This document shows, piece after piece, positions 11,895 through 58,694 of a stretch of DNA of 64,000 nt. The translations under genes were made by a program, and so were the position numbers. The first letter of the stretch is position 1. Each line of letters opens with the position of its first letter. The stretch is from Candidatus Thorarchaeota archaeon (lineage in GTDB: Archaea; Asgardarchaeota; Thorarchaeia; Thorarchaeales; Thorarchaeaceae), in NCBI GenBank assembly GCA_011364985.1, contig RDOC01000003.1, positions 1 to 64,000 of the forward strand, in the 5' to 3' direction. Under the pieces are notes generated by a model. The model was not told where the DNA came from. It did no database searches and saw only the letters and a program-made list of their open reading frames with translations.

Positions 11895-12845
11895 TTGGCT
11901 AAAACCATTAGATTGGGCACCTATAATGTAAATAATCTGTTTGACAGGTTTGACGACCCGTATAACTTCAGTGATGACCCATGGAGGGAAAGGTTCGCAT
12001 CAAAGCCCAAGAAGCTTGAAGACCTCTACAACCTAGGACAGAGGATTCTGAAGAGTGAAGTAGACATCCTAGCACTGCAAGAAATTGAATCACTTGGTGC
12101 ATTAAAGGAATTTGTTGCGGGTCATCTTGGAAAGAAAGATTTCAAGGAATATGGCATTGTGAGTGTTTCGGGCAATGATCCACGGGGAATAGATCTAGGA
12201 GTTATTAGCAAGTATCCATTGGGTGAAGTTACAAGTCACCGATTTCATAGACATGAGGGAACCTGGATCTTCTCACGTGACTGCCTAGAGGTGGAGATTT
12301 TGGACAAAGCAGGAGGACAGCCTTTTCTCACACTTTTTGTTTCGCACCTGAAATCACAATTCTCGGAACATAAAATCGGAACAACTGAGTGGAAGAAGGA
12401 TAAGGAAGAGAACGATGCAAAACGAAAACGGCAGCTGGAAAAGACACTTGACATCGTGAAGCGCTCAGGGAAAGACACCTATGCGATTCTTGGTGACTTT
12501 AATGACTCTCCGGAATCTCCTTCTATCAAGTGGTTTATTGACGCAAATGTAGGTGTTGGCAATGGTATTGAACTATTTGATGCTCTAGCAACAATTCGTT
12601 GTAAGCCTGAATTCGAACCATATACCGGAGAGGATTCTCCAAAAAAGCGGAAACGTGATACGCACAAATGGGAGAAGGACAAAGAGAAAGGACACGAGGA
12701 AACCACGTACAGCCAACTGGATTACATATTCCTCTCGGGAAATCTACAACAAGCATTCAAGTCTGCACAAATCGAACAGAGCTGGTATACGAGCGGTTCT
12801 GACCACTATCTATGTTATGCTGATGTGAAATTCGCCAATCTTTAG
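11895..12845 (+). CDS. Endonuclease/exonuclease/phosphatase (EEP) family protein
   Basis: TYNVNNLF, LQEIE, GDFND, LDYI, SDH motifs; GGAGG RBS before TTG 11895. Confidence 0.88.
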   Translation: MAKTIRLGTYNVNNLFDRFDDPYNFSDDPWRERFASKPKKLEDLYNLGQRILKSEVDILALQEIESLGALKEFVAGHLGKKDFKEYGIVSVSGNDPRGIDLGVISKYPLGEVTSHRFHRHEGTWIFSRDCLEVEILDKAGGQPFLTLFVSHLKSQFSEHKIGTTEWKKDKEENDAKRKRQLEKTLDIVKRSGKDTYAILGDFNDSPESPSIKWFIDANVGVGNGIELFDALATIRCKPEFEPYTGEDSPKKRKRDTHKWEKDKEKGHEETTYSQLDYIFLSGNLQQAFKSAQIEQSWYTSGSDHYLCYADVKFANL

Positions 12846-12997
12846 AGTTCGAACACAGAGGGAGCACTAATGCTGAGCAACAATCCGATGATAGAGTGGT
12901 TGTGGAAAATGGGTATGGTTTTTGATGACTTCGAATGAGAAACTATGCACTCCATTCTCTTCATTCTATTCCTAGTAGTTCATCTCTTGGTCAAATG

Positions 12998-13465
12998 CTA
13001 TATCTCTGAGAGAACCACGCTAGTAACTGTCCTCTCCAGGCCTTCGATGTTTCTCAATGTAAAGATCACAAAGTCATTCAACGTGTCAACATCTTTCACT
13101 GCCGCTTTCACAATCAAGTCATTGTTTCCAGTCACTATGGACACTCCTTCGACTTCTGGCAGCTCCTTTATCATCTGAGCGACTTCAAATTGATTGATTT
13201 TGTCCCCCCTTGTTGAGCGATAAGACACTGTACACAGGATATAGGCAACCAAACCCTTCTCAATCTTCTTTCCATCAGTTTCTATCGTGAATCGCTTGAT
13301 GACTTCTTTTTCAGTCAGTTTCTTGATTCTGTTGTGGACTGTTGTTTGAGGCATTTCGAGTTCTTTAGACATCTCTTTGGTGGTCATTCGAGAGTTCGCT
13401 TTGAGTAGAGCCAAAATTCTGAAGTCCTTGTCATCCAGATCGTTCATGATGGAAGTATTTTCCAT
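12998..13465 (-). CDS. Lrp/AsnC family regulator
   Basis: LDDKDFRILALLKANSR HTH plus RAM domain; divergent from asparagine synthetase. Confidence 0.92.
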   Translation of the reverse strand: MENTSIMNDLDDKDFRILALLKANSRMTTKEMSKELEMPQTTVHNRIKKLTEKEVIKRFTIETDGKKIEKGLVAYILCTVSYRSTRGDKINQFEVAQMIKELPEVEGVSIVTGNNDLIVKAAVKDVDTLNDFVIFTLRNIEGLERTVTSVVLSEI

Positions 13466-45015: not shown

Positions 45016-46332
45016 ATGGAGAAATCAGACATCATGCATGAAACACAGAACGAGAGTTCGGAATCTGAAAAACGAAAAGCAATCATACGGCAGGTTACCC
45101 TAAGGGAGTTCGACAAAGACCAGAACCAGAAAGAGCAAGATGTTTCTCTGCGGGATCTCGTTGATTTTCCGTCCACAACATACAGTACCTTTGGCATCTA
45201 CAACTACCCTGCGAAGTTCATCCCTCATGTTGTCAACTATGTCCTTGAGAACTACGGGGAGGAGGGGATGACAGTCTTCGACCCATTTGCAGGTTGTGGC
45301 ACCGTCGGACTTGCATCTCGTATCTATGGGCATGGCTACGAACTCTGGGATCTAAATCCCATTCTAGAACTGCTGCATCGAGTAGCGATAGCCGCGCCTG
45401 TCAATATCGACATTGTATCCCTTGTGGATCATGTTCTTGAATATGAGGAATCATATATCCCAAAATGGTCAAACTTTGACTACTGGTTTGCAGAAGACCT
45501 TCAGAATCTTCTTGCACAATCTTGGGGATTCTATCACGCACTAGAAGACGAAAGTGTGAGGGATTTCCTTGCTGTCCCGCTCCTTAAGGTAAGTAGACAC
45601 TTCTCGTATGACGATATGGGTCGTATGAAGCTATCGAAGTCCCCGAAGTCAAAGGCCCGTGTGAAAGAGATTTTGAAACAGGACTGGAAATGGTTGTTCC
45701 GTTCGATGCTCATCGATGAGCTCAATGATTTGCACAAGAAGCAGAAGGAATATCAATCACTCAACCCCGTCGATGTAGAGGCAACTATACGTGCAGGTGT
45801 GGACTCTCTCAAGGAGAGCCTTCGAGAAGACCGTGATATTCTCATCACCTCTCCTCCGTATCTTCAGTCACAGGAGTATATGAGGCAGGCAAAGATGGAC
45901 CTGTTCTGGCTTGGATACTCCGATAAGGAAGTAAAACAGCTTAGCAAGATGGAAATACCCTATCGAGATTTGCATGAGATAGACATCAAATCTGAAACAT
46001 ACAGACGAGTGAGGAAAGTCATAGGTGAAGAGCATATTCAGGACGTCTATGACAACTATTTCCGGGGTGTGACTCAGTGTCTTGAGCGACTGTCAACAGA
46101 CATCTCGACTTACCTCTTCTTCTTCGTTGGAAGGTCAAGTATGAGGGGCAGACCTGTCCCCATCGACACGATACTAACTGAACACTTCACCCAATTGGGC
46201 TGGACGCATGAGAGAACACTAGTGGATACTATTGTTTCACGGCGGATGTTCTCATATGGTGTCAATCCCGCCACAAATCAGCGAGATGTGAGGACCAAAA
46301 CAGAGCATCTAATCGTCCTTAAGAGACCTTAA
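45016..46332 (+). CDS. DNA N4-cytosine methyltransferase (alpha motif order)
   Basis: YPAKFIP, DPFAGCGT (motif I) precedes TSPPY (motif IV) with a long intervening region. Confidence 0.85.
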   Translation: MEKSDIMHETQNESSESEKRKAIIRQVTLREFDKDQNQKEQDVSLRDLVDFPSTTYSTFGIYNYPAKFIPHVVNYVLENYGEEGMTVFDPFAGCGTVGLASRIYGHGYELWDLNPILELLHRVAIAAPVNIDIVSLVDHVLEYEESYIPKWSNFDYWFAEDLQNLLAQSWGFYHALEDESVRDFLAVPLLKVSRHFSYDDMGRMKLSKSPKSKARVKEILKQDWKWLFRSMLIDELNDLHKKQKEYQSLNPVDVEATIRAGVDSLKESLREDRDILITSPPYLQSQEYMRQAKMDLFWLGYSDKEVKQLSKMEIPYRDLHEIDIKSETYRRVRKVIGEEHIQDVYDNYFRGVTQCLERLSTDISTYLFFFVGRSSMRGRPVPIDTILTEHFTQLGWTHERTLVDTIVSRRMFSYGVNPATNQRDVRTKTEHLIVLKRP

Positions 46333-46367
46333 GAAGTTGGAGCGCTCCGAATAATCAGAGGATAGTC

Positions 46368-46877
46368 ATGGGCCGGGTGACCGATCTCAATATCACTGGC
46401 AAGGATGAGAGTGCCTTTGCAGCAGACATGGGTATGGCACACGAGTTTCTAGTAACTGCAATACTAATTCGGCTTGGTTTTGAAGTCGGTGTTATGCAAG
46501 TTTCGAGAACCCCGTATGATCTCTGGCTTCTTGCATACGACCGGCCCGATGGCAACAGTGTTTCCTTGCGGGTTCAGATAAAGACAGTTTCTAAGGGTGG
46601 CACCATCAAACTCACAGGTGGAACCCGTGGGGGCATAGACCGCGAGTACAAGAGTGACGTGAAAGAATACAAGTACAGCACCGAGCATAGCGACCTACTC
46701 ATTGGGGTTGACAGGAATACATTCGATTTGTATTTGGTACCGACAAGCTTTCTTGACGATTGGGGGAAGTCCAAGGCTGTGTCACTGCTTAAGCCCTTAA
46801 AGAACAACTGGGACTTGCTGATGAACTGGAATGATGAATTCATTATCTCACTTCGGAATGATTTGATCCAGTCATGA
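46368..46877 (+). CDS. Small PD-(D/E)xK endonuclease (putative restriction partner)
   Basis: G..HE, PYDL, RVQIKT motifs; directly follows the MTase. Confidence 0.75.
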   Translation: MGRVTDLNITGKDESAFAADMGMAHEFLVTAILIRLGFEVGVMQVSRTPYDLWLLAYDRPDGNSVSLRVQIKTVSKGGTIKLTGGTRGGIDREYKSDVKEYKYSTEHSDLLIGVDRNTFDLYLVPTSFLDDWGKSKAVSLLKPLKNNWDLLMNWNDEFIISLRNDLIQS

Positions 46878-48326: not shown

Positions 48327-48802
48327 TATGTGAATTCAAATCTCAAGATTGTTGAGTAATCTTGGACAGGAGTTGGGGTGTGATGAAATTCTTTCTTGGT
48401 ACCCTCAGGAGCTTCGATACAGCGCCTACATCGTTCATGGTATGTAGACTAATCAACCTTCTCGTAGGTCTTTGATGATTGAACCGTTTGCTGGCATTGT
48501 CCTCTCGGAGGCTTTAATTAGAACCTACTCCCGAGAATCCCACCCTTCCACGGACCATCCGATCTGGGTGGTGCAGTTGGCCACTATGAACTGAAGATAG
48601 TGGCCTTCCACAGATTCGTTCGGTTGACCCGGCATCACTGTATCCAACTCATGATACAAGCCTTCCACTAACGGTCCGCATGATGAGGAAACAATATGCT
48701 TAAATTTCCAGCTCGAACAGCCGTAGATTAGAGGCCCGAAATCACTTCCTTGTAAGGAAAGATAATTCGAGCCTTTCGCTAACAGTCTGTGAGTGGACAC
48801 CT

Positions 48803-48877
48803 GCGGCCGTTGTCTAGGGGTTAGGATGCAGCCCTTCCAAGGCTGGGGCCCGGGTTCAAATCCCGGCGGCCGCACCA
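48803..48877 (+). tRNA. tRNA-Gly(TCC), intron-less
   Basis: GCGGCCG/CGGCCGC acceptor, CAGCC-CTTCCAA-GGCTG arm, TTCAAAT, ACCA. Confidence 0.95.
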
Positions 48878-49300
48878 CATCATAGCCCATAGAACATGGC
48901 TGAAGTGAATGAACCCCACCTACGGACTTCTGTGTTCCATCCGTCTTCTGCCCGATGTCGCCATCAACTCCTGGAGCCACCCAGTAGCAAGCAAAAGCAT
49001 TGGCTGCAATCATCGAGACACGGTCCCTCCTACAGCCCTGACTTCTTTCTCCTGCTTTATTCCAGTCGCATCTTTCCTGGGAGCAGTGAGCCTTTCCACA
49101 GCATTTTCCACGGCACGGTCATCATCGCCATCCCCGTCCTCGTCACCGAATTCAAGGACACTCGTCTGAGCTGAGCGAACCACCGCGGACTCCCTCGGGC
49201 TTGATGCACTACCCTTGCGAGGGAGTGAGGACTTCTGTTTAGGGGAACGAGCCCCCCTAACAGCCTTCGGGACTGAGCCCAGCCTCCGCTCGGGAGTGGC
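48878..49300 (-). ncRNA. Candidate omega-RNA region overlapping the TnpB 3' end
   Basis: Clustered hairpins (49207-49227, 49261-49275, ~48885-48902) and a GGGGTTCATTCAC right-end-like motif at 48917-48905; boundaries approximate. Confidence 0.4.
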
Positions 49301-50692
49301 CCACCGCCCTAGTCCATTCTCACTCCAAAGTGAAGGAATGAGCGTGATAAGTCGACGCGCTATGTTCAGGGAACCGTTGCGGTCCGCGTTTGTGCGGAAC
49401 CCACAGGTGTGGCACACGAAGAGAGACTGCCTCGGTCGGATTCCCTGATGCCCGCACTTCCAACAGGTGATGGAGGTCCAGTTCTCCGGGATCACATGGA
49501 AACGACTTTGTTTACCCTCTGTCCGCCAACCGAGTTGTTCGAGGCCGTGCTTCAGCGTGCGCGTCACCCGCCCGAAGCACCATCTGTGCATAAGGCCTCG
49601 AAACCGCTTTCCCTGATAGTTGCCCTTGCGGGCCGTGTTGCGGATGCCCTTGAGTCGACCGATGGCCACATGCACGACATACCGCTCACTGAGCCCCCCT
49701 ATGTATGAGAGAAGCCAACTCACCGTGAGCCTATCATACTCCTTGGACACATTCTCGCGCTTCGACCGAAGCCCCTTAAGTTTCCGAACAACATTGTCAT
49801 ATCGAAGCCCCCGGTCCCTGCGCGTGTCAGCCTCGTGCTGGAGATTAGCCACCTGCCGGTCGTATCGCCGCATGAGTCTGACCTTGTCATGTTGGACGAA
49901 ATAGCGGGTTTCCGAAACACGCGTAGGCGTCAGCAACGTCGTGCACACCGCCCTGTTAATCCCGAGGTCGATACCAAGAATCGCCGGGGGAAGGCCCCGC
50001 TTCTCCACCATGGTTTCAGGAATCCGGATGGCCACAGCGGCCCACCACTTTCCTCGCCTATCGGTGAAGACCTGCACGCTCTTCTCATTCCCGCGTTCAA
50101 GCTGCTGGAGATGGAAGGGCGCCGTCTTCAGGGGCACAGTCAATCTATCATGCACCTGCCTGCCCTCTGCGACCGAGTCCAATGAGTCGCGGAGCTCCAG
50201 CCACCATGTGGCCACGGTATTCTCATGCTTTACAAGCCTAGCGCGATACGGAATGAAGATTCGTCTGGGAATTCGCCTGTCCCGATTGACCTGACTGGGG
50301 CGGGAATGTCTTCCCCCACCCCTCCGAAGAGCCAGATAACTCTCATAGTTCGCTGCAGCCACCCTCCGACACTCGGAGAGTTCGTTAGCCGATATCCTCG
50401 GGAAGCGCGCTTTGAGGTCATGCTCAACAATCAACCTCTGCTTGCCATCTCCAGAGACCCGTTCGGCTGTCATAGTCAGGGTATGCAGCTTGCTCTCATC
50501 GATTCGCTTTCTGTTCACCCCCCTCAAGAGCTGTTCCTCGTTCTCCTCGATAATCCTGAAGAACGCCCTGATGACTCTGGTGTCTCGGCCCACCATCTGG
50601 CGCAGCCGCTGTTGCGCCCTCGTGGTCATCATCTCCCAGTTGATGGGAATTTTGACCGTAATCACTGGTTGCTGGTTTTTCACCATAGCCAT
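49010..50692 (-). CDS. tnpB: TnpB/Fanzor-like RNA-guided nuclease with rearranged RuvC-II
   Basis: GIDLG (D242), VAIGRL (G345 at the canonical Glu position), IPENWTS (E403), CWKC..CHTC, NADRNGSLNI (D437). Confidence 0.88.
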   Translation of the reverse strand: MAMVKNQQPVITVKIPINWEMMTTRAQQRLRQMVGRDTRVIRAFFRIIEENEEQLLRGVNRKRIDESKLHTLTMTAERVSGDGKQRLIVEHDLKARFPRISANELSECRRVAAANYESYLALRRGGGRHSRPSQVNRDRRIPRRIFIPYRARLVKHENTVATWWLELRDSLDSVAEGRQVHDRLTVPLKTAPFHLQQLERGNEKSVQVFTDRRGKWWAAVAIRIPETMVEKRGLPPAILGIDLGINRAVCTTLLTPTRVSETRYFVQHDKVRLMRRYDRQVANLQHEADTRRDRGLRYDNVVRKLKGLRSKRENVSKEYDRLTVSWLLSYIGGLSERYVVHVAIGRLKGIRNTARKGNYQGKRFRGLMHRWCFGRVTRTLKHGLEQLGWRTEGKQSRFHVIPENWTSITCWKCGHQGIRPRQSLFVCHTCGFRTNADRNGSLNIARRLITLIPSLWSENGLGRWATPERRLGSVPKAVRGARSPKQKSSLPRKGSASSPRESAVVRSAQTSVLEFGDEDGDGDDDRAVENAVERLTAPRKDATGIKQEKEVRAVGGTVSR

Positions 50693-50941
50693 CGCTCCTA
50701 CAATATAAAGTTCTGACCTGTTCAGTCAGTGGAGTTCATTCGCAACCTTGTGCTTGCAAGACTGTATTGAACTCCTACAATTAGTAGGTATGAAACAATA
50801 TAAAGTTATGAAGCAATTTAAATAAACGAAAAGTTGAATTAGTCAGTCCATTCCTTCTTTATCAAAATCTAAGTAGAAAAAGATTTAATCTGCTTTTGAT
50901 ATAGTCACAAAAAAGTCTATAGTTTTCTACACGAAAGGAGA

Positions 50942-53900
50942 GTGGCGCGCATGAGAGGGAGCCGCGGCCCTCAGGTGAAACCGTATCCGAAACATCCGAA
51001 CAGGGTGCTGGCACGAGCGATGAGGACAGGCTTATCCACGGCGGTATACCTGCAGCGAACCATCCGGAATAGAATCACCCGCCACCTGTACGATAGCTCC
51101 CGCGATATACTCCACAGGTACACCGAGGCTTACCAAATCGCGAAGGCCTCGGGCGTGCCGGACTTCACCCACATCATAAAAGCGGAACACAACATCAGGA
51201 AGAACGGCTTGGACATGCTGGAGGAGAACGCAGCCCTCTACGGGTGCACAGAAACAGTGCGGGCGCGACGCTGGTACGAGGAAGTGGGCCCCCTGAACCA
51301 GCGGCTCAATGTCGGGGGCGCGGTGCTGCGGGAGATGGGTGCAATCTACTACCCTATGGAGCGGCCGCAGCCGCTCTTCGACGACAACGGCGAACACATC
51401 GGTTACGGCTATCCTGGTGACTCACGCTGGCCTGCCTATCCTCCTGTTCACCGGTTCCTGAGCGAGCTGGACTTCATGGACGCCCTCCGCCAGCACATCC
51501 AAATTCTAAACACCGATGCGTACATCCACGATGTGTCGGTTCGGGACATACGCCGATACAGCAACCTCCTTATCCTCCGTGCACGAACCTACCTTGACTA
51601 CCTGTACACCGAGCACGAGTATGGCTCGGCAGGGTTCAGAAACGGGACGGTCCGCCTGCTGCGGGAAATCCGCAATGATATCTCCAAGCACCATAGTGTC
51701 CGTGTAGGCGAACTGGAATCCGTGTCGTTGCATGGTAGACATACACGTCTAGTCTTCAGCATAGACTTTTTCAAAGAGCAGCTGGCAAAGGCTCGGGAGA
51801 GCGGTATCAATCCAGCTGTGACTGAGGAGCTTTCACGAATCCTGACCGGTGGGTCTGCGGTCTTGGAGGAGGAAGGGAAGGAAGCTCCCTGCCTAACCAG
51901 TGACGATGTGAAACACTTGTGGGAGAGGGCTGTGCGAAGGACAAAGAAGGTGGGAGCCCACGTTCACAGGCGCATTACCGATATGTTCGACCGGTTTCTG
52001 AATGTGCAGAGGGCCATCCGCAACGATGACCGCGATAGTTTTGGAGGTGGTTTCAGGATTGTCGCAGAGATGCCACTGGGAACCGAACTGGGGAAAGGCA
52101 GAGCGGATCTGGTGGTGTTCAGGAGGGAAACCGCGCCCGCAGGTCTACGTACCCTCTGGCGCCCAGTAATGGTGGTGGAGATTAAGAGCCGCTGTGGGTT
52201 CAAGTGGTATATGGTGCCTGAACGAAGGTCTTCTCTATCCAGGAAGAGGTACGGAATGGTGCAGCGGGTGGTCCCACGGTTCAGGCTCTCTCTGCGCCCT
52301 CTCAGTCCCAGCGAGTGGGAGCAGGTCGTCGATGGCATTCCCGAGCCGAACACTGTGATCCAGCTCGATACCTATGCGGAAGCCCTGTCTGAAGCCTTCG
52401 GGTCGATTGCGCATCTTGACAGTCCTCCGAGAGTGATTCGGGCAACACTCGTCATTGACCCCACCGATGAGAACAGAAAGAGCAGGTCTATGATACAGAG
52501 TTTCCTCCTGAGTGCTCTTGAATCTTGCCTGACGGAGGACCTGTCCCAAAGCAGGACCGCCTATAATGTTTCGAGAGATGGACTCAGACCACGCATGGCA
52601 CTCGTGGTCCATAGTCAGGAATACTCTCCAAACTACGGACAACCGCAGGTGCCACAGGAATGGAAACCGCCCTATGACCCACTGATTGGTGCTGGCACCA
52701 GAGCCCGACGCTTCATTCTCTATGTTTCCGCGGCGTCTCCAACGTCAGCAGGGCTTTCGGCCGCTTGGATTGCAAGACACCATCACGGTTTGCAGACAAT
52801 CCATGAGTTTCGAGAGGCGTCTCCTGACCTGCGTGTTTTTTGGCTTGACATGGCCAATGAGTTCCCAACGCCCACTCTCGCGGAGGCGAGGTTGCGGGCT
52901 CGAGGACGGGAGGCTGAGAACAGTCTGTCAGACGCTGTCAAAGTAACTTTCCGCTCCATAGAGTTCAAACAGCTTTTTGCTGATATCCAGACGTATCTCT
53001 ACAGCGACGGCCCGATGGTGGACCTGTCGGCTGTATTGGGAGACCAAGTGAAACAGCCCCGCATGCTTGTTGTGTCAGGCTGGGACATTATTGACAGCTC
53101 AACGCCCTCACCCTACCGAACCCGCATGAACAGACTGCTGGCTGAGATAGTAGACCAATTGCCTGATGATGAGCAAACCATCATCCTGTGGCTTTCAAGG
53201 CCGGTGAAATATGAGAGAAGAACACCAATCTACTCAACCAATTGTTTCATCCCTGTTCGGGACACCTCTCCCCTCCTAGGCGAACTGGATGAAATCATCT
53301 GGAATCTGCCATGCGGACCTGAGCAAGTCATCTATCCTGATTCTTGGCAGCGCCCGTCCACCTCCAAAAGCCCCATGTTTGATGATATCAGGATCGTGGT
53401 TGCCCAGTCTCTTCAAGGGTTCGAAACCTCGCTCATCCATATCCCGGCTCTCAGACATTGGTCTGCCAAATTCAGAACCGAAGAATACAATCACTCCAAG
53501 AAAGAGATACCGGAACCACGGGAACATGCCGTGCCCGGGGCAGGGATACGAGAGAGAATCAGGTCGCTGGCATTGACCCTAATTCCCTGGTTGGTTGACC
53601 TGTGGCCCGATACACATCTTTCACCTGATGTGAACCTTTCCGATTCTCTCCGTAACTCCTTAGATGAGATTCACGACTCTGCAGAAGGCCTGACAGTTAC
53701 AAGACGTTCTCTCTCCCGCGAACCCACAGATGTCCCAAGCCTGTTGAATAGACTACAGTATCGTCCTCCCCGAACAAGAGGAGGCAAGGCATTTGCCGAC
53801 ATCTTTCTCGGACAGATCAATGCTCACCGACTATATCGTGCTCGCCAGCAGAGCAAGTCCAAACCGAGGCCCTCATATCCTAAGACTTTCGAGCCCCCCA

Positions 53901-55519
53901 AGCTTAGGATTGCTAGCTTTGGCCAGATGGTCTGCTCAGAGGACGCTGACCAGCCGCTCTACATAGTGGCATTGGAGGACCCAGAGAATCCTGCCAGAGT
54001 TCTTGTGGGATTCCTAAACAGCTACGTACAGATTCGCACTGACGGACTGCAGTGGGCTGAGAGTCGTATCTCGGAGCAGGTAGATGATATCCAGCAGGTC
54101 ATGAGCTCAGGCCATCGTTTCTCACTGGCTCTTCAGCAAGACGACGAAGGCTGGCTGCTCTGGCAGAAGGACTCAGAGAGATCAGATTGGACTTTTGAAA
54201 GCACTATTGACATCATTAGGGGAAGAACGATTGGCTCGACCGCAATGATTCGGGCAATCAGGTACCTTCCCTCCTCCGACTCCGTGACTCAATATACCAG
54301 TGACATTCGCTTTCCCGCGAATCTGACCGGCCGACTCGACAAGGCTGTCGCTCGCATCTTGAAACATATTCGGCAGCAGAAGGAGGTTTCAGTCAAGCTG
54401 TCGTGGACGGATAATGGCTGCACGGTGGACTTCAAGACCGGGGATGATGTGCTGGACACAGTAGAACATCTCTATACCTCCAATCTTGTCGAAACCTTAA
54501 CTCTCACACGAGGAGGGTTTCCAGTGAACCTCTCATCGGGCCATCTAGTCGTTTGGGATCGGTTTCGTGACATTGACTATGGAGAAGTATCTCTCCTGAT
54601 AGATGTAAGTCAGACTTTTATTCCAGCTACGACCGAGATTGGTTTGCCTGCAAAACTCTCAGATCTGTTGTGCCTTCCCGAGGGAGAGGAGCTTGAGTTC
54701 CAGCTCTCGCACGAGCGAGATGAATGTCCGCTCTTCTCAGGACAAGGAGAAGACCATGGCAGGTGCTGGCGACTCTCTCTTGTGGGTGAGAATGAGGCGG
54801 TATCCAGGATTTTTTGTGGTTTCCTTACAGACCGAGAGGTATTCCTCCGCATCGGCTCCAAGAGTGTGGTGTTCGGGTCGAAGGTTTACCCAATCAAGGT
54901 AGATGTTCCATCAGCACTGCAACAGGAGGGTATGGTTTTTCGGGAGAGTCCACTCATTCGCAAGATACTCCAGAGGAACGGTGTTCGGGCGTCTCCACTG
55001 AAACCAGGAGCGTATCTACAGGCCGCCCAGCAAGAGTGGGAGATATCTGTAACTATCAGGGATGACTGGCTGACGTGGGTTGCAGTATCCACTCTAACAG
55101 GAGAAAATTGGAAGAACCGAGCTTTCACCTACGAACTGCAAGTTGTCCGAGAGCTCTCCGATATCTTGGATGAGCTCTGGGGATATATCATATCGGAGAT
55201 TCCCGAAAAGTTCATTCATAATTCAGAACTCCAAAAAGCCAGATTGAGAGGCATTCTTGAGAAACGAGGCCTGAGTGATGCCTTACTGCAAGTCAGGCTG
55301 GAAGCGACCATGAAACGGAGAATCCTCACTGTGGAAGCGCGACGAACAGGGAATGGTGATGAGATGATTGACAGCATTTCGTGGGAACTCCCACGTAGAG
55401 TCAAGGGGGACCATCTCATAGACAGTATTGTGCAACGCCTGGAGGAGGGTACATGGGCAAGATTCGACGTAGTGAATAAAGAGGAATTCTTCGAAACACT
55501 AGACCGGCTTCTTGATTGA
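50942..55519 (+). CDS. 1525-aa protein with a PD-(D/E)xK nuclease domain and a degenerate RecA-like domain
   Basis: AEMPL...GRADLVVF (D389), VVEIKS (E413/K415), QLDTYA; later VFWLDMANEF and MLVVSGWD. Confidence 0.65.
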   Translation: MARMRGSRGPQVKPYPKHPNRVLARAMRTGLSTAVYLQRTIRNRITRHLYDSSRDILHRYTEAYQIAKASGVPDFTHIIKAEHNIRKNGLDMLEENAALYGCTETVRARRWYEEVGPLNQRLNVGGAVLREMGAIYYPMERPQPLFDDNGEHIGYGYPGDSRWPAYPPVHRFLSELDFMDALRQHIQILNTDAYIHDVSVRDIRRYSNLLILRARTYLDYLYTEHEYGSAGFRNGTVRLLREIRNDISKHHSVRVGELESVSLHGRHTRLVFSIDFFKEQLAKARESGINPAVTEELSRILTGGSAVLEEEGKEAPCLTSDDVKHLWERAVRRTKKVGAHVHRRITDMFDRFLNVQRAIRNDDRDSFGGGFRIVAEMPLGTELGKGRADLVVFRRETAPAGLRTLWRPVMVVEIKSRCGFKWYMVPERRSSLSRKRYGMVQRVVPRFRLSLRPLSPSEWEQVVDGIPEPNTVIQLDTYAEALSEAFGSIAHLDSPPRVIRATLVIDPTDENRKSRSMIQSFLLSALESCLTEDLSQSRTAYNVSRDGLRPRMALVVHSQEYSPNYGQPQVPQEWKPPYDPLIGAGTRARRFILYVSAASPTSAGLSAAWIARHHHGLQTIHEFREASPDLRVFWLDMANEFPTPTLAEARLRARGREAENSLSDAVKVTFRSIEFKQLFADIQTYLYSDGPMVDLSAVLGDQVKQPRMLVVSGWDIIDSSTPSPYRTRMNRLLAEIVDQLPDDEQTIILWLSRPVKYERRTPIYSTNCFIPVRDTSPLLGELDEIIWNLPCGPEQVIYPDSWQRPSTSKSPMFDDIRIVVAQSLQGFETSLIHIPALRHWSAKFRTEEYNHSKKEIPEPREHAVPGAGIRERIRSLALTLIPWLVDLWPDTHLSPDVNLSDSLRNSLDEIHDSAEGLTVTRRSLSREPTDVPSLLNRLQYRPPRTRGGKAFADIFLGQINAHRLYRARQQSKSKPRPSYPKTFEPPKLRIASFGQMVCSEDADQPLYIVALEDPENPARVLVGFLNSYVQIRTDGLQWAESRISEQVDDIQQVMSSGHRFSLALQQDDEGWLLWQKDSERSDWTFESTIDIIRGRTIGSTAMIRAIRYLPSSDSVTQYTSDIRFPANLTGRLDKAVARILKHIRQQKEVSVKLSWTDNGCTVDFKTGDDVLDTVEHLYTSNLVETLTLTRGGFPVNLSSGHLVVWDRFRDIDYGEVSLLIDVSQTFIPATTEIGLPAKLSDLLCLPEGEELEFQLSHERDECPLFSGQGEDHGRCWRLSLVGENEAVSRIFCGFLTDREVFLRIGSKSVVFGSKVYPIKVDVPSALQQEGMVFRESPLIRKILQRNGVRASPLKPGAYLQAAQQEWEISVTIRDDWLTWVAVSTLTGENWKNRAFTYELQVVRELSDILDELWGYIISEIPEKFIHNSELQKARLRGILEKRGLSDALLQVRLEATMKRRILTVEARRTGNGDEMIDSISWELPRRVKGDHLIDSIVQRLEEGTWARFDVVNKEEFFETLDRLLD

Positions 55520-55550
55520 GAGCAGTTCAGGTGGTCGCCTCCAAACCTGC

Positions 55551-55581
55551 GACCCGGGTTCGAATCCTGGTGGCGGCACCA
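55551..55581 (+). repeat. tRNA-Gly 3' direct repeat (att-like)
   Basis: GACCCGGGTTCGAATCCTGGTGGCGGCACCA. Confidence 0.8.
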
Positions 55582-55595
55582 TTCTTAATATCCTG

Positions 55596-58541
55596 TTACA
55601 TGTAGAATCTATAATGTCCTTGAACTTCTTTTCCTTCAGGAATCTCAGAAAGAACAGCTCCTACTTTTTCTGGGAATATTATCGTTATTGGCAACTTATC
55701 TCCAAAACTAGATGTATTCCAATTGATTTTTGTCAGCTTTAAAATCTCACTCGCAACAAAATCCATCTCTGAGTCACAATCGAGATCAAGTAGTAGTGGT
55801 CTCGGAACTCTTGGACCTGGATAAGTCCTCAATCTAGGTATGTAACCTGAAGTGTACAGAAGACATTGTTTCTCATTTATTTTTATCATCGTTCCTCTTA
55901 ACACTGGATATTTACCAGTTCTTACAAAGCGGAAACCATGTACCCGTCCAATACTAATAAAATCAGCAGAAGCTCGACCTATAGCATTGAGAAATCCTTG
56001 ACGTTCATCAGAGTTGAATCTGGATAATTTATGTATGACCACTCTTGCAGGCTTTGTTCTTGATTTGAGCGTATAGGTTTCAATTGCTCTGTTAAGTAGG
56101 TCAAATGCGCTATCCTTTTGAAGATGAACCTCTTTTGATTTTTTGTCAACTTCTACCTTTGCCCCTTGGAGCACAAAACCGTCACCGCTATGGGTAAAGA
56201 CCTGCGCCATTGACGCCTTTAAATTGCCTAAAGGGTCATCTCTCCTCGAATAAAATGCAATTCCAACATAACAAGTATCCTGTTCTAGTTTTGCTAGTCT
56301 CCATGGTTTCCCATTTGCCTTGTAATACATGGCAGTAGAGAAATTCCAACTAAATGTCGCTGGATTTTGAACCAAGTCTGCTCTTCGTGGATAATCTAAT
56401 ATTGCTCTACCATTTCTTTCGATTAGCAATTGCACAGGAATTCCATAATCCATCACAGCTCCCTTAATTGCATCATGCAAATCAAAACTTCGAAGGTCTG
56501 GTTCTGCAAAATCGAAATCAACAAGTGTGGTCTGCCCTTCCTCTTTGGCCTTAGCGAAATCTTTCTCCTCTTTAGTATATCGAGGCCTTTTGGCCCATCT
56601 GGTTTTTTTACTTATTCCACAATAATCATCAATTGCATCTGGAACTATACACAATATCACATCCGGACGGTTATCTTCTATTGCAATTGATTTCACTTTG
56701 TCATGATACAACTCAACTGCAGCATGAATACGTTCGTGAACACTTTGTATTGAAATGATTCTATCGACCTCTGATTGCGTTATTGTTTCGTTCCAAGAAT
56801 TTGAGTACTTGAACTGGCAGTTAACAGGTGAATCAGTATTAAAACCAGGATAACTAGGAAACAAGAATTTATTTTCACTTGGGCAGGCAATTTCCTGACC
56901 TAGCAAATCTATGATGTTTTTTGCAACTTCGCGTCCAGATCCAGTACCAATTATACCTAATCTGACTTGACCAATAGGCTCTTCATCTTTGGCATGATAC
57001 GGTCCAAAATACTTCAGTCCAATTCTCGGGTCTTCCTCTTCCCTCTGCCCTCCAAAAAGTAGTTTTGGTTCTTCGATAAACTGTGACTTGAATTCTGTAC
57101 CTACACTCTCCCTATCAAATGCTAGAGGCCCTTCTTTTTGTTCCTTTGCAGGTGTATCTCCATCAATCCCTATATCCATATACGCACGAATGAATTCTGA
57201 AGAGATGGTGATTCGATTTTCAGTGAGAATCTCACCATTTTCATCTTCAGTTATTACTTGACCAAATACAATATGTCCGAATTCATCTTTAGGTAGTTTT
57301 GACCTCCAGAATTTCAAATCGTTATGATAGCTACTGTTGTATCTAAGTCTAAGGAGTCTGGTTATTGCAGTCCCGTCAATTAGATTATGTACAGGAGTTA
57401 CACCATCATTTGTTAGTACAATACTAGGTTCGACTTTCAGATAATATTGATTATTTATCCATTGAAACTGCAGTGACACTGACCAATGCCGCCATCTATA
57501 TGATGTCACTTGACTCACGTAGAATTTCCTTACAACTTTGCGGGGCTTTCGGGAACTTCCATCTCCCCACCCTTCGTAGCATACCTCGTCCTTACAGGTA
57601 TAGAAAAGAGCACGAGGTCGTGATTCTGAATCAAGAACCATTCTTTTCTTCTTCATTGCTGCAGTTGCTTCAATGTTAAGAAGATGGGTTATTAGGTTCC
57701 TCCCATCATCACTTTGAACTAGTATTTCAGTATCTATCTTTTCTTGGCTATCTGGAACAATGTAGTCTTGAAGCTTATGCTCATCAAACCTACAAAATGA
57801 ATGAAGACGCCTACCCTGTTTTGTAAATGGTTTATCACCTGTTCTAGAAAGTGGAAAATCATCAGTTTCAATTCGGACGGTATAGACAGTTTTTGGTATT
57901 TCTAAAACTTTCAGTAAATTGCCAAAAATGACCTCTTCTACTTGGTCGGGCCTACCAGTTAACAAGGACATTCGATGTTGATCTAGCTTTATTCTTTTCT
58001 CAATCTCTCTATGCTCTTTATCATTGGCTACAATACTTTGAGTGCCTCGTCTTGTCAGAACATCGTTCCTTCTGAAAGCATACTTTCTCTTTCCATCTTT
58101 TATGTAAATTCCATCCTTAATCGGTTTTAGAACTGACGTTGAAGGGGGAACATAAACTACAGCAAATTGTTTTGCTAATATCACACCCTTTTCTTCAACA
58201 TGTCTTTCAAATAATCTAAAACCTAATTCGATCTTTTCAGAACTAAAGGAATTGAATTTTTCTTGGAGCTGTGCTTGATCAATCTGTATCCTTTCATCTA
58301 AGCCGACAGGAATGATTTTCTTTTTCTTATCCAAAAATCCAAAGAGAATCCAACCTGAGCCTTTGTTTGCCATAGCAAAGATGTGTTTCGCAAGTTTCGC
58401 AAAATCGGATTGCTGAGATATATCTATGGTGAGTTTGAAATCAATGTGTGGTTCCTCAGACATTTTATCCCAGATTAGATCTAACATTAAATCTCCTAAT
58501 GGATCAGGATGAATCTCATTATCTCCATGAATAACTACCAT
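55596..58541 (-). CDS. Schlafen/AlbA_2 - APAZ-like - short Argonaute (MID-PIWI, inactive) fusion
   Basis: EEPHIDFK..IFAMANKGSGWILFG (AlbA_2); FIEEPKLLFG at ~aa 488; YYKANGKPW, YVGIAFY, VVIHK, RGT, YPGPRVPRP, LTKINWN, LPITI, C-terminal RFYM. Confidence 0.9.
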   Translation of the reverse strand: MVVIHGDNEIHPDPLGDLMLDLIWDKMSEEPHIDFKLTIDISQQSDFAKLAKHIFAMANKGSGWILFGFLDKKKKIIPVGLDERIQIDQAQLQEKFNSFSSEKIELGFRLFERHVEEKGVILAKQFAVVYVPPSTSVLKPIKDGIYIKDGKRKYAFRRNDVLTRRGTQSIVANDKEHREIEKRIKLDQHRMSLLTGRPDQVEEVIFGNLLKVLEIPKTVYTVRIETDDFPLSRTGDKPFTKQGRRLHSFCRFDEHKLQDYIVPDSQEKIDTEILVQSDDGRNLITHLLNIEATAAMKKKRMVLDSESRPRALFYTCKDEVCYEGWGDGSSRKPRKVVRKFYVSQVTSYRWRHWSVSLQFQWINNQYYLKVEPSIVLTNDGVTPVHNLIDGTAITRLLRLRYNSSYHNDLKFWRSKLPKDEFGHIVFGQVITEDENGEILTENRITISSEFIRAYMDIGIDGDTPAKEQKEGPLAFDRESVGTEFKSQFIEEPKLLFGGQREEEDPRIGLKYFGPYHAKDEEPIGQVRLGIIGTGSGREVAKNIIDLLGQEIACPSENKFLFPSYPGFNTDSPVNCQFKYSNSWNETITQSEVDRIISIQSVHERIHAAVELYHDKVKSIAIEDNRPDVILCIVPDAIDDYCGISKKTRWAKRPRYTKEEKDFAKAKEEGQTTLVDFDFAEPDLRSFDLHDAIKGAVMDYGIPVQLLIERNGRAILDYPRRADLVQNPATFSWNFSTAMYYKANGKPWRLAKLEQDTCYVGIAFYSRRDDPLGNLKASMAQVFTHSGDGFVLQGAKVEVDKKSKEVHLQKDSAFDLLNRAIETYTLKSRTKPARVVIHKLSRFNSDERQGFLNAIGRASADFISIGRVHGFRFVRTGKYPVLRGTMIKINEKQCLLYTSGYIPRLRTYPGPRVPRPLLLDLDCDSEMDFVASEILKLTKINWNTSSFGDKLPITIIFPEKVGAVLSEIPEGKEVQGHYRFYM

Positions 58542-58663: not shown

Positions 58664-58694
58664 GACCCGGGTTCGAATCCCGGTGGCCGCACCA
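58664..58694 (+). repeat. tRNA-Gly 3' direct repeat (right island boundary)
   Basis: GACCCGGGTTCGAATCCCGGTGGCCGCACCA; housekeeping genes resume immediately afterwards. Confidence 0.85.

Follow-up and report, generated by a model that had tools for sequence, protein, structure and literature searches.

The locus described here raises the question of what kind of system is formed by two divergent genes, one encoding a TnpB protein and the other a giant protein of 1525 residues, that together fill a 6.7-kb block beside a tRNA gene of a Candidatus Thorarchaeota archaeon. The window, that is, the whole stretch of DNA analysed, comprises 64,000 nucleotides (positions 1 to 64,000 of the forward strand of contig RDOC01000003.1, GenBank assembly GCA_011364985.1). 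A previous sequence-only reading had proposed that the two genes constitute a possible RNA-guided defence or mobility system, in which the large protein would be an effector or a non-canonical recombinase replacing TnpA. The element block (48878-55539) lies between tRNA-Gly(TCC) and a partial copy of the same tRNA, and its two genes recur together in other Asgard genomes. The block is probably a mobile element, in which the giant protein would provide Cas1-type integration and nuclease processing and TnpB, together with an omega-RNA, would by analogy with IS200/IS605 provide RNA-guided cutting for retention or homing. The recombinase half of the earlier proposal is made plausible by the Cas1 fold found at the N-terminus of the giant protein, and a role as defence effector appears less likely than mobility.

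A divergent gene pair at the 3' end of tRNA-Gly

Apart from a 162-aa open reading frame (ORF; 48525-49013, minus strand) that lies antisense to tRNA-Gly and to the omega-RNA end, has no credible family match and is probably spurious rather than a gene, the block contains only tnpB (49010-50692, minus strand) and the giant gene (50942-55519, plus strand). The composition of the block is also distinctive, with a GC fraction of 0.52-0.60 versus 0.37-0.48 in the flanks and 0.42 in the 249-nt intergenic spacer, so that the description of a GC-rich two-gene block bounded by attachment (att) sites, with an AT-rich divergent region inside it, was borne out.

The linkage of the two genes was surveyed from both sides. 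Twelve giant-family loci with readable upstream DNA were available, namely six from the close subfamily (31-74% identity), three paralogues in the window's own genome and three distant members, and a divergent TnpB adjoined the giant gene in all 12, down to about 25% identity. The TnpB clade was sampled in 79 loci, mostly from Thorarchaeota metagenome-assembled genomes, with up to eight loci per genome. Among the 67 with at least 1 kb of upstream sequence the giant gene was present in 45, absent in 21 (the solo status being checked with hidden Markov models for both halves of the giant protein) and rearranged in one. The gap between tnpB and the giant gene measured 232-304 nt in 42 of the 45 pairs, and the pairwise identities of the partners were correlated (Mantel r 0.46, 0 of 2000 permutations). 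The linkage is thus real yet asymmetric, the giant gene always occurring with TnpB and TnpB often standing alone. The co-occurrence check that the sequence-only reading had proposed therefore confirms a genuine two-gene module when started from the giant family and only in part when started from TnpB. The refuting condition set by that reading, giant homologues usually lacking this TnpB, was contradicted by the 12 loci, and the 45 paired and 21 solo loci look as expected of an autonomous element accompanied by non-autonomous derivatives.

These data also dispose of the trivial explanation, a chance insertion of an insertion sequence (IS)-borne TnpB beside an unrelated large gene. The great number of TnpB genes, their frequent insertion close to tRNAs and the 21 loci devoid of the giant gene would agree with such an event; yet the invariable divergent partner, the nearly constant gap, the conservation of the spacer and the co-divergence of the partners refute it, leaving it a negligible probability.

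The family of the giant protein is closed: its 184 representatives at 50% clustering are all unnamed or "hypothetical" and carry Asgard source names; the source names of the loci are Thor-, Loki- and Promethearchaeota. The window's own genome also holds TnpB fragments with stop codons, and on its contig C15 (L024:9013-10770) a giant-family gene is shortened to 585 aa and ends after the nuclease domain. This short gene forms a divergent pair with an intact 558-aa TnpB, adjoins rpoB and tRNA-Lys, and may be either a minimal copy or one undergoing decay.

The 3' end of tRNA-Gly(TCC) (48803-48877, plus strand; ARAGORN, Rfam tRNA 63 bits) abuts the tnpB end of the element and serves as its attachment site. 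Its 3' part is the left direct repeat (48836-48877, plus strand), which a repeat search found to share 42 nt at 81% identity with a displaced tRNA-Gly 3' fragment, the right direct repeat (55540-55581, plus strand), located 20 nt past the stop codon of the giant gene. Loci L001, L003, L043, L044, L045, L052 and L108 have this tRNA directly next to the corresponding end of the element, and further copies adjoin tRNA-His or a different tRNA. A perfect 32-nt repeat of the 3' end of tRNA-Gly encloses precisely the two genes of L001, and in L003 a degenerate tRNA-Gly fragment directly follows the giant stop codon, with a perfect 27-nt repeat farther out, beyond an extra cassette.

Two further observations concern the use of this site. 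The extra cassette of L003 (12741-17871), enclosed between the degenerate and the perfect repeat, encodes a metallophosphatase, an SbcCD-like SMC/AAA_23 pair and an aldehyde:ferredoxin oxidoreductase; the tRNA-Gly site collects varied cargo. Just past the right repeat of L001 are the inverted remains of another omega-RNA end and an ORF of 95 aa corresponding to a tnpB tail (L001:12650-12710 and 12794-13081), and this decayed second copy points to insertions in tandem at this tRNA-Gly, of which one later decayed.

Domains of the giant protein and of TnpB

The giant ORF was called from a GTG codon, but the true start is probably the ATG at 50951 because homologues begin with MRGSRG. The protein has no Pfam or NCBIfam match, and the sequence profile of its family retrieved nothing from the PDB. 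AlphaFold2 models built with 50-54 homologues gave a predicted local distance difference test (pLDDT) of 88.9 and a predicted template modelling score (pTM) of 0.88 for the N-terminal half, and values of 82.6 and 0.62 for the C-terminal half. The search of profiles and structures by domain that had been suggested by the sequence-only reading recovered the RecA fold and, in addition, a Cas1-like N-terminus absent from that reading, and assigned no fold to the C-terminal 670 residues or so.

The N-terminal region (residues ~4-260; 50951-51730, plus strand) is Cas1-like in fold, resembling the alpha-helical catalytic domain of Cas1 (aCas1, the name used for Asgard Cas1 homologues). In VIA-align searches the model of residues 9-240 matched Cas1 8flj_A with Z 13.1 (177 aa, root-mean-square deviation 3.4 A), followed by 4n06_B (Z 12.2), 4w8k_A (12.1), the RT-Cas1 7kft_D (11.2), the casposase 6opm_A (10.7) and four more Cas1 chains. 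Altogether, Cas1 and casposase chains provided the top match and 9 of the top 50, with Z 10.1-13.1. Across 39-54 sequences, E82 and H170 are invariant, and the residues of the L-D177-F-x-D180-x-x-R183 motif are invariant or at least 90% conserved. At the sequence level, Pfam Cas_Cas1 was reached by one of 54 family members (E 0.004), the giant protein of the window giving no match.

A PD-(D/E)xK nuclease-like domain follows (residues ~355-530; 52000-52540, plus strand), defined by E376, D389, E413-x-K415 and Q474xxxY478. The complete nuclease signature that had been noticed from the sequence is conserved family-wide: the 54 members compared share D389, K415, Q474 and Y478 without exception, have E376 in at least 90% of cases and carry E or D at position 413. 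Beyond these motifs the support is soft, consisting of weak VRR_NUC and HSDR_N_2 matches and of language-model neighbours that all belong to PDDEXK_9, PDDEXK_3, PDDEXK_1 or Cas4 clusters (best 0.90). The AlphaFold2 model shows a confident beta-sheet/helix unit at residues 371-530, but the structure search did not confirm a restriction-endonuclease-like fold there, its lists being taken up by the RecA and Cas1 domains.

The third domain (residues ~585-843; 52694-53470, plus strand) adopts the RecA/Rad51/KaiC/DnaB fold. Residues 585-840 matched 9svy_B in Foldseek (E 1.9e-5) together with 30 more chains at E<=1e-3, including Rad51 paralogues, KaiC and DnaB, and VIA gave 8faz_X at Z 12.7 (193 aa) and further matches from 12.7 to 10. 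As the earlier reading had recognised, the P-loop is degenerate: the Walker A motif GxxxxGK[ST] is replaced by SPTSAGLS, and the family consensus SxTSSGxS likewise has no Lys. The remainder of the protein (residues ~856-1525; 53507-55519, plus strand) is fast-evolving and built of small alpha/beta modules of no known fold, with no Foldseek match at E<=1e-3 and a best VIA Z of 5.7; it carries an invariant cluster of H1257, C1262, H1272 and C1275.

The 560-aa TnpB is matched by Pfam PF07282 (Cas12f1-like TNB domain; 9e-12, 45.4 bits, cut-off 26.3) and by NCBIfam NF040570 (guided_TnpB; 6e-26), in the latter case with 91.6 bits, slightly below the cut-off of 100. Solved TnpB and Cas12f structures retrieved from the PDB align to it across RuvC-I to RuvC-III. 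In an alignment of six orthologues, D242 of RuvC-I (LGIDLG), D437 of RuvC-III (NADRNG) and the zinc finger C410/C413/C427/C430 are invariant. The position of the canonical RuvC-II Glu is occupied by an equally invariant G345 (AIGRLK), and an alternative Glu, E403 (PExWTS), is invariant as well. In PMC10691335 (Altae-Tran et al. 2023), RIIr-5 TnpBs are described as having Gly at RuvC-II and an alternative conserved Glu, and judging from the residues G345 and E403 the present protein fits this rearranged arrangement. Active RNA-guided cleavage of DNA, by a RuvC site of rearranged layout, is predicted for this TnpB. The label "Fanzor-like" given by the sequence-only reading is justified to this extent and no further: the Gly and the alternative Glu are shared by Fanzor and the RIIr branches and are widespread in prokaryotic TnpB branches, and, unlike Fanzor, the protein is prokaryotic (Asgard), with no eukaryotic features seen in it. 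A larger TnpB type of 650-720 aa is the partner of many of the more distant giant proteins.

The omega-RNA and the intergenic spacer

A structured, omega-RNA-like transcript is predicted on the minus strand at 48906-49252, covering the last 80 or so codons of tnpB and about 100 nt past its stop codon and ending in GGTTCATTCA (48916-48906). RNAalifold, applied to 42 non-identical loci, yielded a consensus structure that spans from about 210 nt within the tnpB ORF to about 70 nt past the stop, with 81 pairs, 50 of which show compensatory changes, and with an unpaired 3' tail. Conservation at third codon positions rises from about 0.52 in the body of tnpB to 0.69, 0.73 and 0.82 over the last three 40-codon blocks, which together with the RNA structure indicates that the conserved acidic tail of TnpB largely reflects constraint at the RNA level. 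The 100 nt or so that follow the stop codon are conserved among seven loci although the proteins are only about 50% identical, with GGTTCAYTCA at the far end of the stretch. The sequence GTTCATTCA (48914-48906), some 100 nt beyond the stop, corresponds with one mismatch to the motif GTTCACTCA, which is exact in six of six homologous loci and present in most of the 79 TnpB-clade loci; the larger TnpB type does not have it. Rfam returned no family for this RNA, matching only the tRNA.

Between the GGTTCATTCA motif and the tRNA lie 28 nt (48878-48905, minus strand) that cannot be aligned among the window, L001 and L003, in spite of the conservation of both adjoining segments. They may occupy the position of the guide or flank in the omega-RNA, or else be a neutral spacer, and match nothing elsewhere in the window's own, 74%-complete genome.

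The AT-rich spacer between the divergent genes (50693-50950), whose length is 249 nt when counted to the GTG of the giant gene and 258 nt when counted to its ATG, shows unusually high conservation for non-coding DNA in a multi-locus alignment. Two TATA-like boxes in direct orientation (50700-50716 and 50795-50811), found at the same positions in about 50 related loci, flank a palindromic module of about 90 nt with GAGTTCAYTC and TTGAACTC. This module contains a CTGACC..GTCAG hairpin, GAGTTCATTC at 50732-50741 and the inverted partner TTGAACTC at 50769-50777. The two boxes co-vary, their within-locus exact shared word having a median of 13 nt versus 6 nt across loci (0 of 2000 permutations); concerted promoter evolution, a duplication made during insertion, or a small GUUCACUC-hairpin RNA driven by box 1 are possible causes. 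Moreover, loci with and without the giant gene alike have an inverted copy of CAGTYGA-GTTCACTC at a distance of 50-58 nt upstream of tnpB (inverted GTTCAYTC in most of them). With the motif at the RNA end, this copy brackets a tnpB unit of about 1.95 kb by inverted repeats.

This arrangement invites the idea that TnpB is a TldR-like RNA-guided regulator, whose RNA 3' tail (CAGTTGAG-GTTCACTCAC) is an inverted copy of the promoter-region site, so that the TnpB-RNA complex would bind there and control tnpB, the giant gene or both. The position of the inverted motif 50-58 nt upstream of tnpB, its placement between the co-varying boxes and the unpaired RNA tail are what such a regulator would display. 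The invariant catalytic set of D242, E403 and D437 does not fit a dead repressor, though, the covariation within loci of the stretch preceding the two inverted GTTCAYTC motifs is not significant (331 of 5000), and the repeats can be read equally well as transposon ends. Regulation of this kind is therefore quite improbable.

A candidate mobile element and its relatives

If the block is a mobile element, its parts could share the work as follows. The giant protein would be the integrase or transposase, its Cas1-type domain joining the element ends to target DNA and its PD-(D/E)xK nuclease possibly carrying out excision or the processing of second strands and ends. The RecA-fold domain, presumably dead as an ATPase, would probably be a scaffold for DNA binding or oligomerisation, and the variable C-terminal half may choose the target. 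In the sublineage of the window, insertion would take place at the 3' end of tRNA-Gly(TCC) and leave a direct repeat of about 27-42 nt. TnpB would bind the omega-RNA of about 350 nt that overlaps its own 3' end and would cleave sites that lack the element, by which the element would be retained or restored by copying. This last step is drawn by analogy with the TnpB of IS200/IS605, for which it has been shown. What the analysis demonstrates is the linkage of the genes, the folds, the conservation of residues of catalytic type, the RNA structure, the repeats and the distribution in multiple copies; all the catalytic activities, like this division of labour between the parts, are inferred.

Several observations weigh against this proposal. 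Aligned by hhalign with eight Asgard Cas1 proteins, the giant family reached a probability of only 2%. That alignment pairs E82 with the catalytic Glu of Cas1 and LD177FxD180xxR with its LDxAExF(K/R) motif; at such a probability the conserved Cas1-type residues are suggestive. The structural match concerns a helical domain, for which a Z near 13 can come from the arrangement of helices alone, and the Cas1 N-terminal beta domain is absent, the match beginning at residue ~9 of the giant protein and covering only residues ~90-340 of the Cas1 chains. As for the DNA, adjacency to a tRNA is not general among TnpB-clade loci, an intact tRNA adjoining the RNA end of the element in only 6 of 56. No terminal inverted repeat (TIR) pairs the tnpB end with the giant end (0 of 29 loci at p<=0.01), and the inverted GTTCAYTC repeats bracket tnpB only, so that the giant gene would fall outside the sole repeat-bounded unit. 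In addition, a tyrosine integrase working in trans would be expected to generate tRNA 3'-end repeats of the same 27-42 nt, and the same tRNA fragments are used by a neighbouring cassette that lacks an integrase and encodes a Schlafen-Argonaute-like protein (described below).

The last two points lead to a different explanation, according to which a site-specific recombinase acting in trans set the block at tRNA-Gly as a passive cassette, with the giant protein in another role such as DNA repair or replication of the element. The resemblance of the tRNA repeats to classic att sites and the extra cassette inside the outer repeat of L003 would both be accounted for. Gene annotation by profile search, in contrast, found no tyrosine or serine recombinase in the block or the homologous loci, leaving the giant protein as the only integrase-type fold, and the pair occurs at many non-tRNA sites; a passive cassette is accordingly unlikely.

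A two-gene defence system within a tRNA-linked defence island, with TnpB and its omega-RNA recognising invader DNA and the giant nuclease/pseudo-ATPase as effector or sensor, would for its part explain the defence-like neighbours (the Schlafen/AlbA_2-Argonaute-like 981-aa gene and, upstream, a DNA methylase and a PD-(D/E)xK-like ORF). The layout of a nuclease followed by a dead NTPase recalls defence proteins, and a variable stretch follows the conserved RNA end at each locus. Set against this, no other part of the window's own genome matches that stretch, a repeat scan of the block found no spacer-array-like repeat, the Cas1-type domain is an integrase fold, and up to eight copies per genome, with decayed and solo ones among them, amount to transposon behaviour. 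Copy number, decayed copies, solo TnpBs and integration at tRNA genes thus make defence less likely than mobility, and on the whole unlikely.

With a mobile element as the favoured interpretation, the relationship to known systems can be considered. A similar RNA-guided component is found in IS200/IS605 and IS607 elements, in which TnpB also has an omega-RNA that overlaps the tnpB 3' end and ends at the element end, and in which numerous solo tnpB copies also exist beside autonomous ones. The present element differs in having no Y1 or serine TnpA, its partner being a multidomain protein of 1500-1900 aa, in its divergent genes and in its rearranged RuvC-II (Gly345, alternative Glu403). Casposons share the Cas1-family integrase as presumed transposase and, in some families, the insertion at tRNA 3' ends, but here there is no family B DNA polymerase (only two genes lie between the repeats), there are no TIRs at both ends (0 of 29 loci), the Cas1 N-terminal domain is absent, TnpB is present and the repeats measure 27-42 nt. 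Casposon target duplications are 14-15 bp long. The term aCas1 reportedly comes from Makarova et al. 2020.

That the system might be undescribed, as the sequence-only reading supposed, does not hold. PMC10691335 already links TnpBs to Asgard Cas1 homologues (aCas1) in two groups (Cas1H-Asgard-1/-2), proposes aCas1 as the transposase, and reports repeats around the aCas1-TnpB locus and, downstream of tnpB, a variable region followed by a conserved GTTCACTCA. The module of the window agrees with that account in its Asgard host, in a TnpB placed beside a very diverged Cas1, in the flanking repeats, in the variable stretch and then GTTCACTCA, and in the existence of two TnpB types (here 560 aa and about 650-720 aa). 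Nothing in it contradicts membership. It is filed under aCas1-TnpB because of the motif, the Asgard hosts, the flanking repeats, the two TnpB types and the Cas1-fold neighbour. The pairing has thus already been reported, in brief computational notes only, and the window adds a new copy, now better defined, of a kind described computationally. Absent from the consulted text of PMC10691335 are the domain map of the giant protein (the Cas1 catalytic domain only, PD-(D/E)xK, dead RecA fold and 670 aa), the tRNA-Gly insertion with repeats of about 30 nt, the inverted GTTCAYTC repeats round tnpB only, the co-varying TATA-like boxes and the proportion of about 30% solo TnpBs.

The Cas1-Cas2(-Cas4) adaptation module of clustered regularly interspaced short palindromic repeats (CRISPR) systems offers another parallel, since there too a Cas1 catalytic fold goes together with a Cas4-like PD-(D/E)xK nuclease with QxxxY, and the target segment duplicated here is about as long as a CRISPR repeat. 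Unlike that module, the present system has no Cas2 and no CRISPR array, consists of one polypeptide, lacks the Cas1 beta domain and stays below the Pfam Cas_Cas1 cut-off. A bolder conception would see in the giant aCas1 and TnpB a single RNA-programmed integration machine, intermediate between transposons and CRISPR. Its Cas1-type domain would make a staggered insertion of CRISPR-repeat size (about 30 bp) and write or renew the variable segment beside GTTCACTCA as a guide for TnpB, in the manner of a one-spacer proto-CRISPR, or else TnpB and the omega-RNA would direct integration by the giant protein as Cas12k does in CRISPR-associated transposons (CAST). This is a long shot, to which very little probability is given.

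Should the giant protein prove to be an active integrase of the Cas1 type with a nuclease of its own fused to it, Cas1 would have become a transposase a second time, independently of casposons, and here in physical coupling with an RNA-guided nuclease. This would bear on the origin of CRISPR adaptation and of type V effectors from mobile elements, and the lineage concerned is the one among archaea that stands closest to eukaryotes. The element is compact, with two genes and defined ends at a tRNA gene. The window and L001 provide clean biochemical substrates (element ends, tRNA-Gly target and the RNA of about 350 nt), and the domain map of the giant protein and the conserved architecture of the spacer offer concrete mutational targets.

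Two other groups were considered as relatives and rejected. Aloposons (PMC8813620) consist of tandem genes for proteins of 3000-6000 aa and have different accessory genes, and helicase-Cas1 fusions from other Asgard genomes (L040:9035-13126 and L041:4970-8941) are unrelated to the giant protein. The latter, 1320-1360 aa long, combine a DEAD/Helicase_C helicase with a Pfam-detectable Cas1 domain and adjoin RAMP genes (ARAMP-like).

Beyond the element lies another cassette, AT-rich and delimited on its far side by a third tRNA-Gly fragment (58666-58694), which indicates that this tRNA-Gly carries a tandem array of insertions. The cassette, comprised between this fragment and the one at 55540-55581, holds an AT-rich gene (55596-58541, minus strand) for a protein of 981 aa with an N-terminal Schlafen/AlbA_2 domain (2e-11) and an Argonaute-like C-terminal end (NF052569, 7e-8). 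On the other side of the tRNA, the region 45016-46877 contains a 438-aa ORF with a weak match to N6_N4 DNA methylases and a 169-aa ORF with a weak PD-(D/E)xK_5 match, which may be the remnant of a restriction-modification system.

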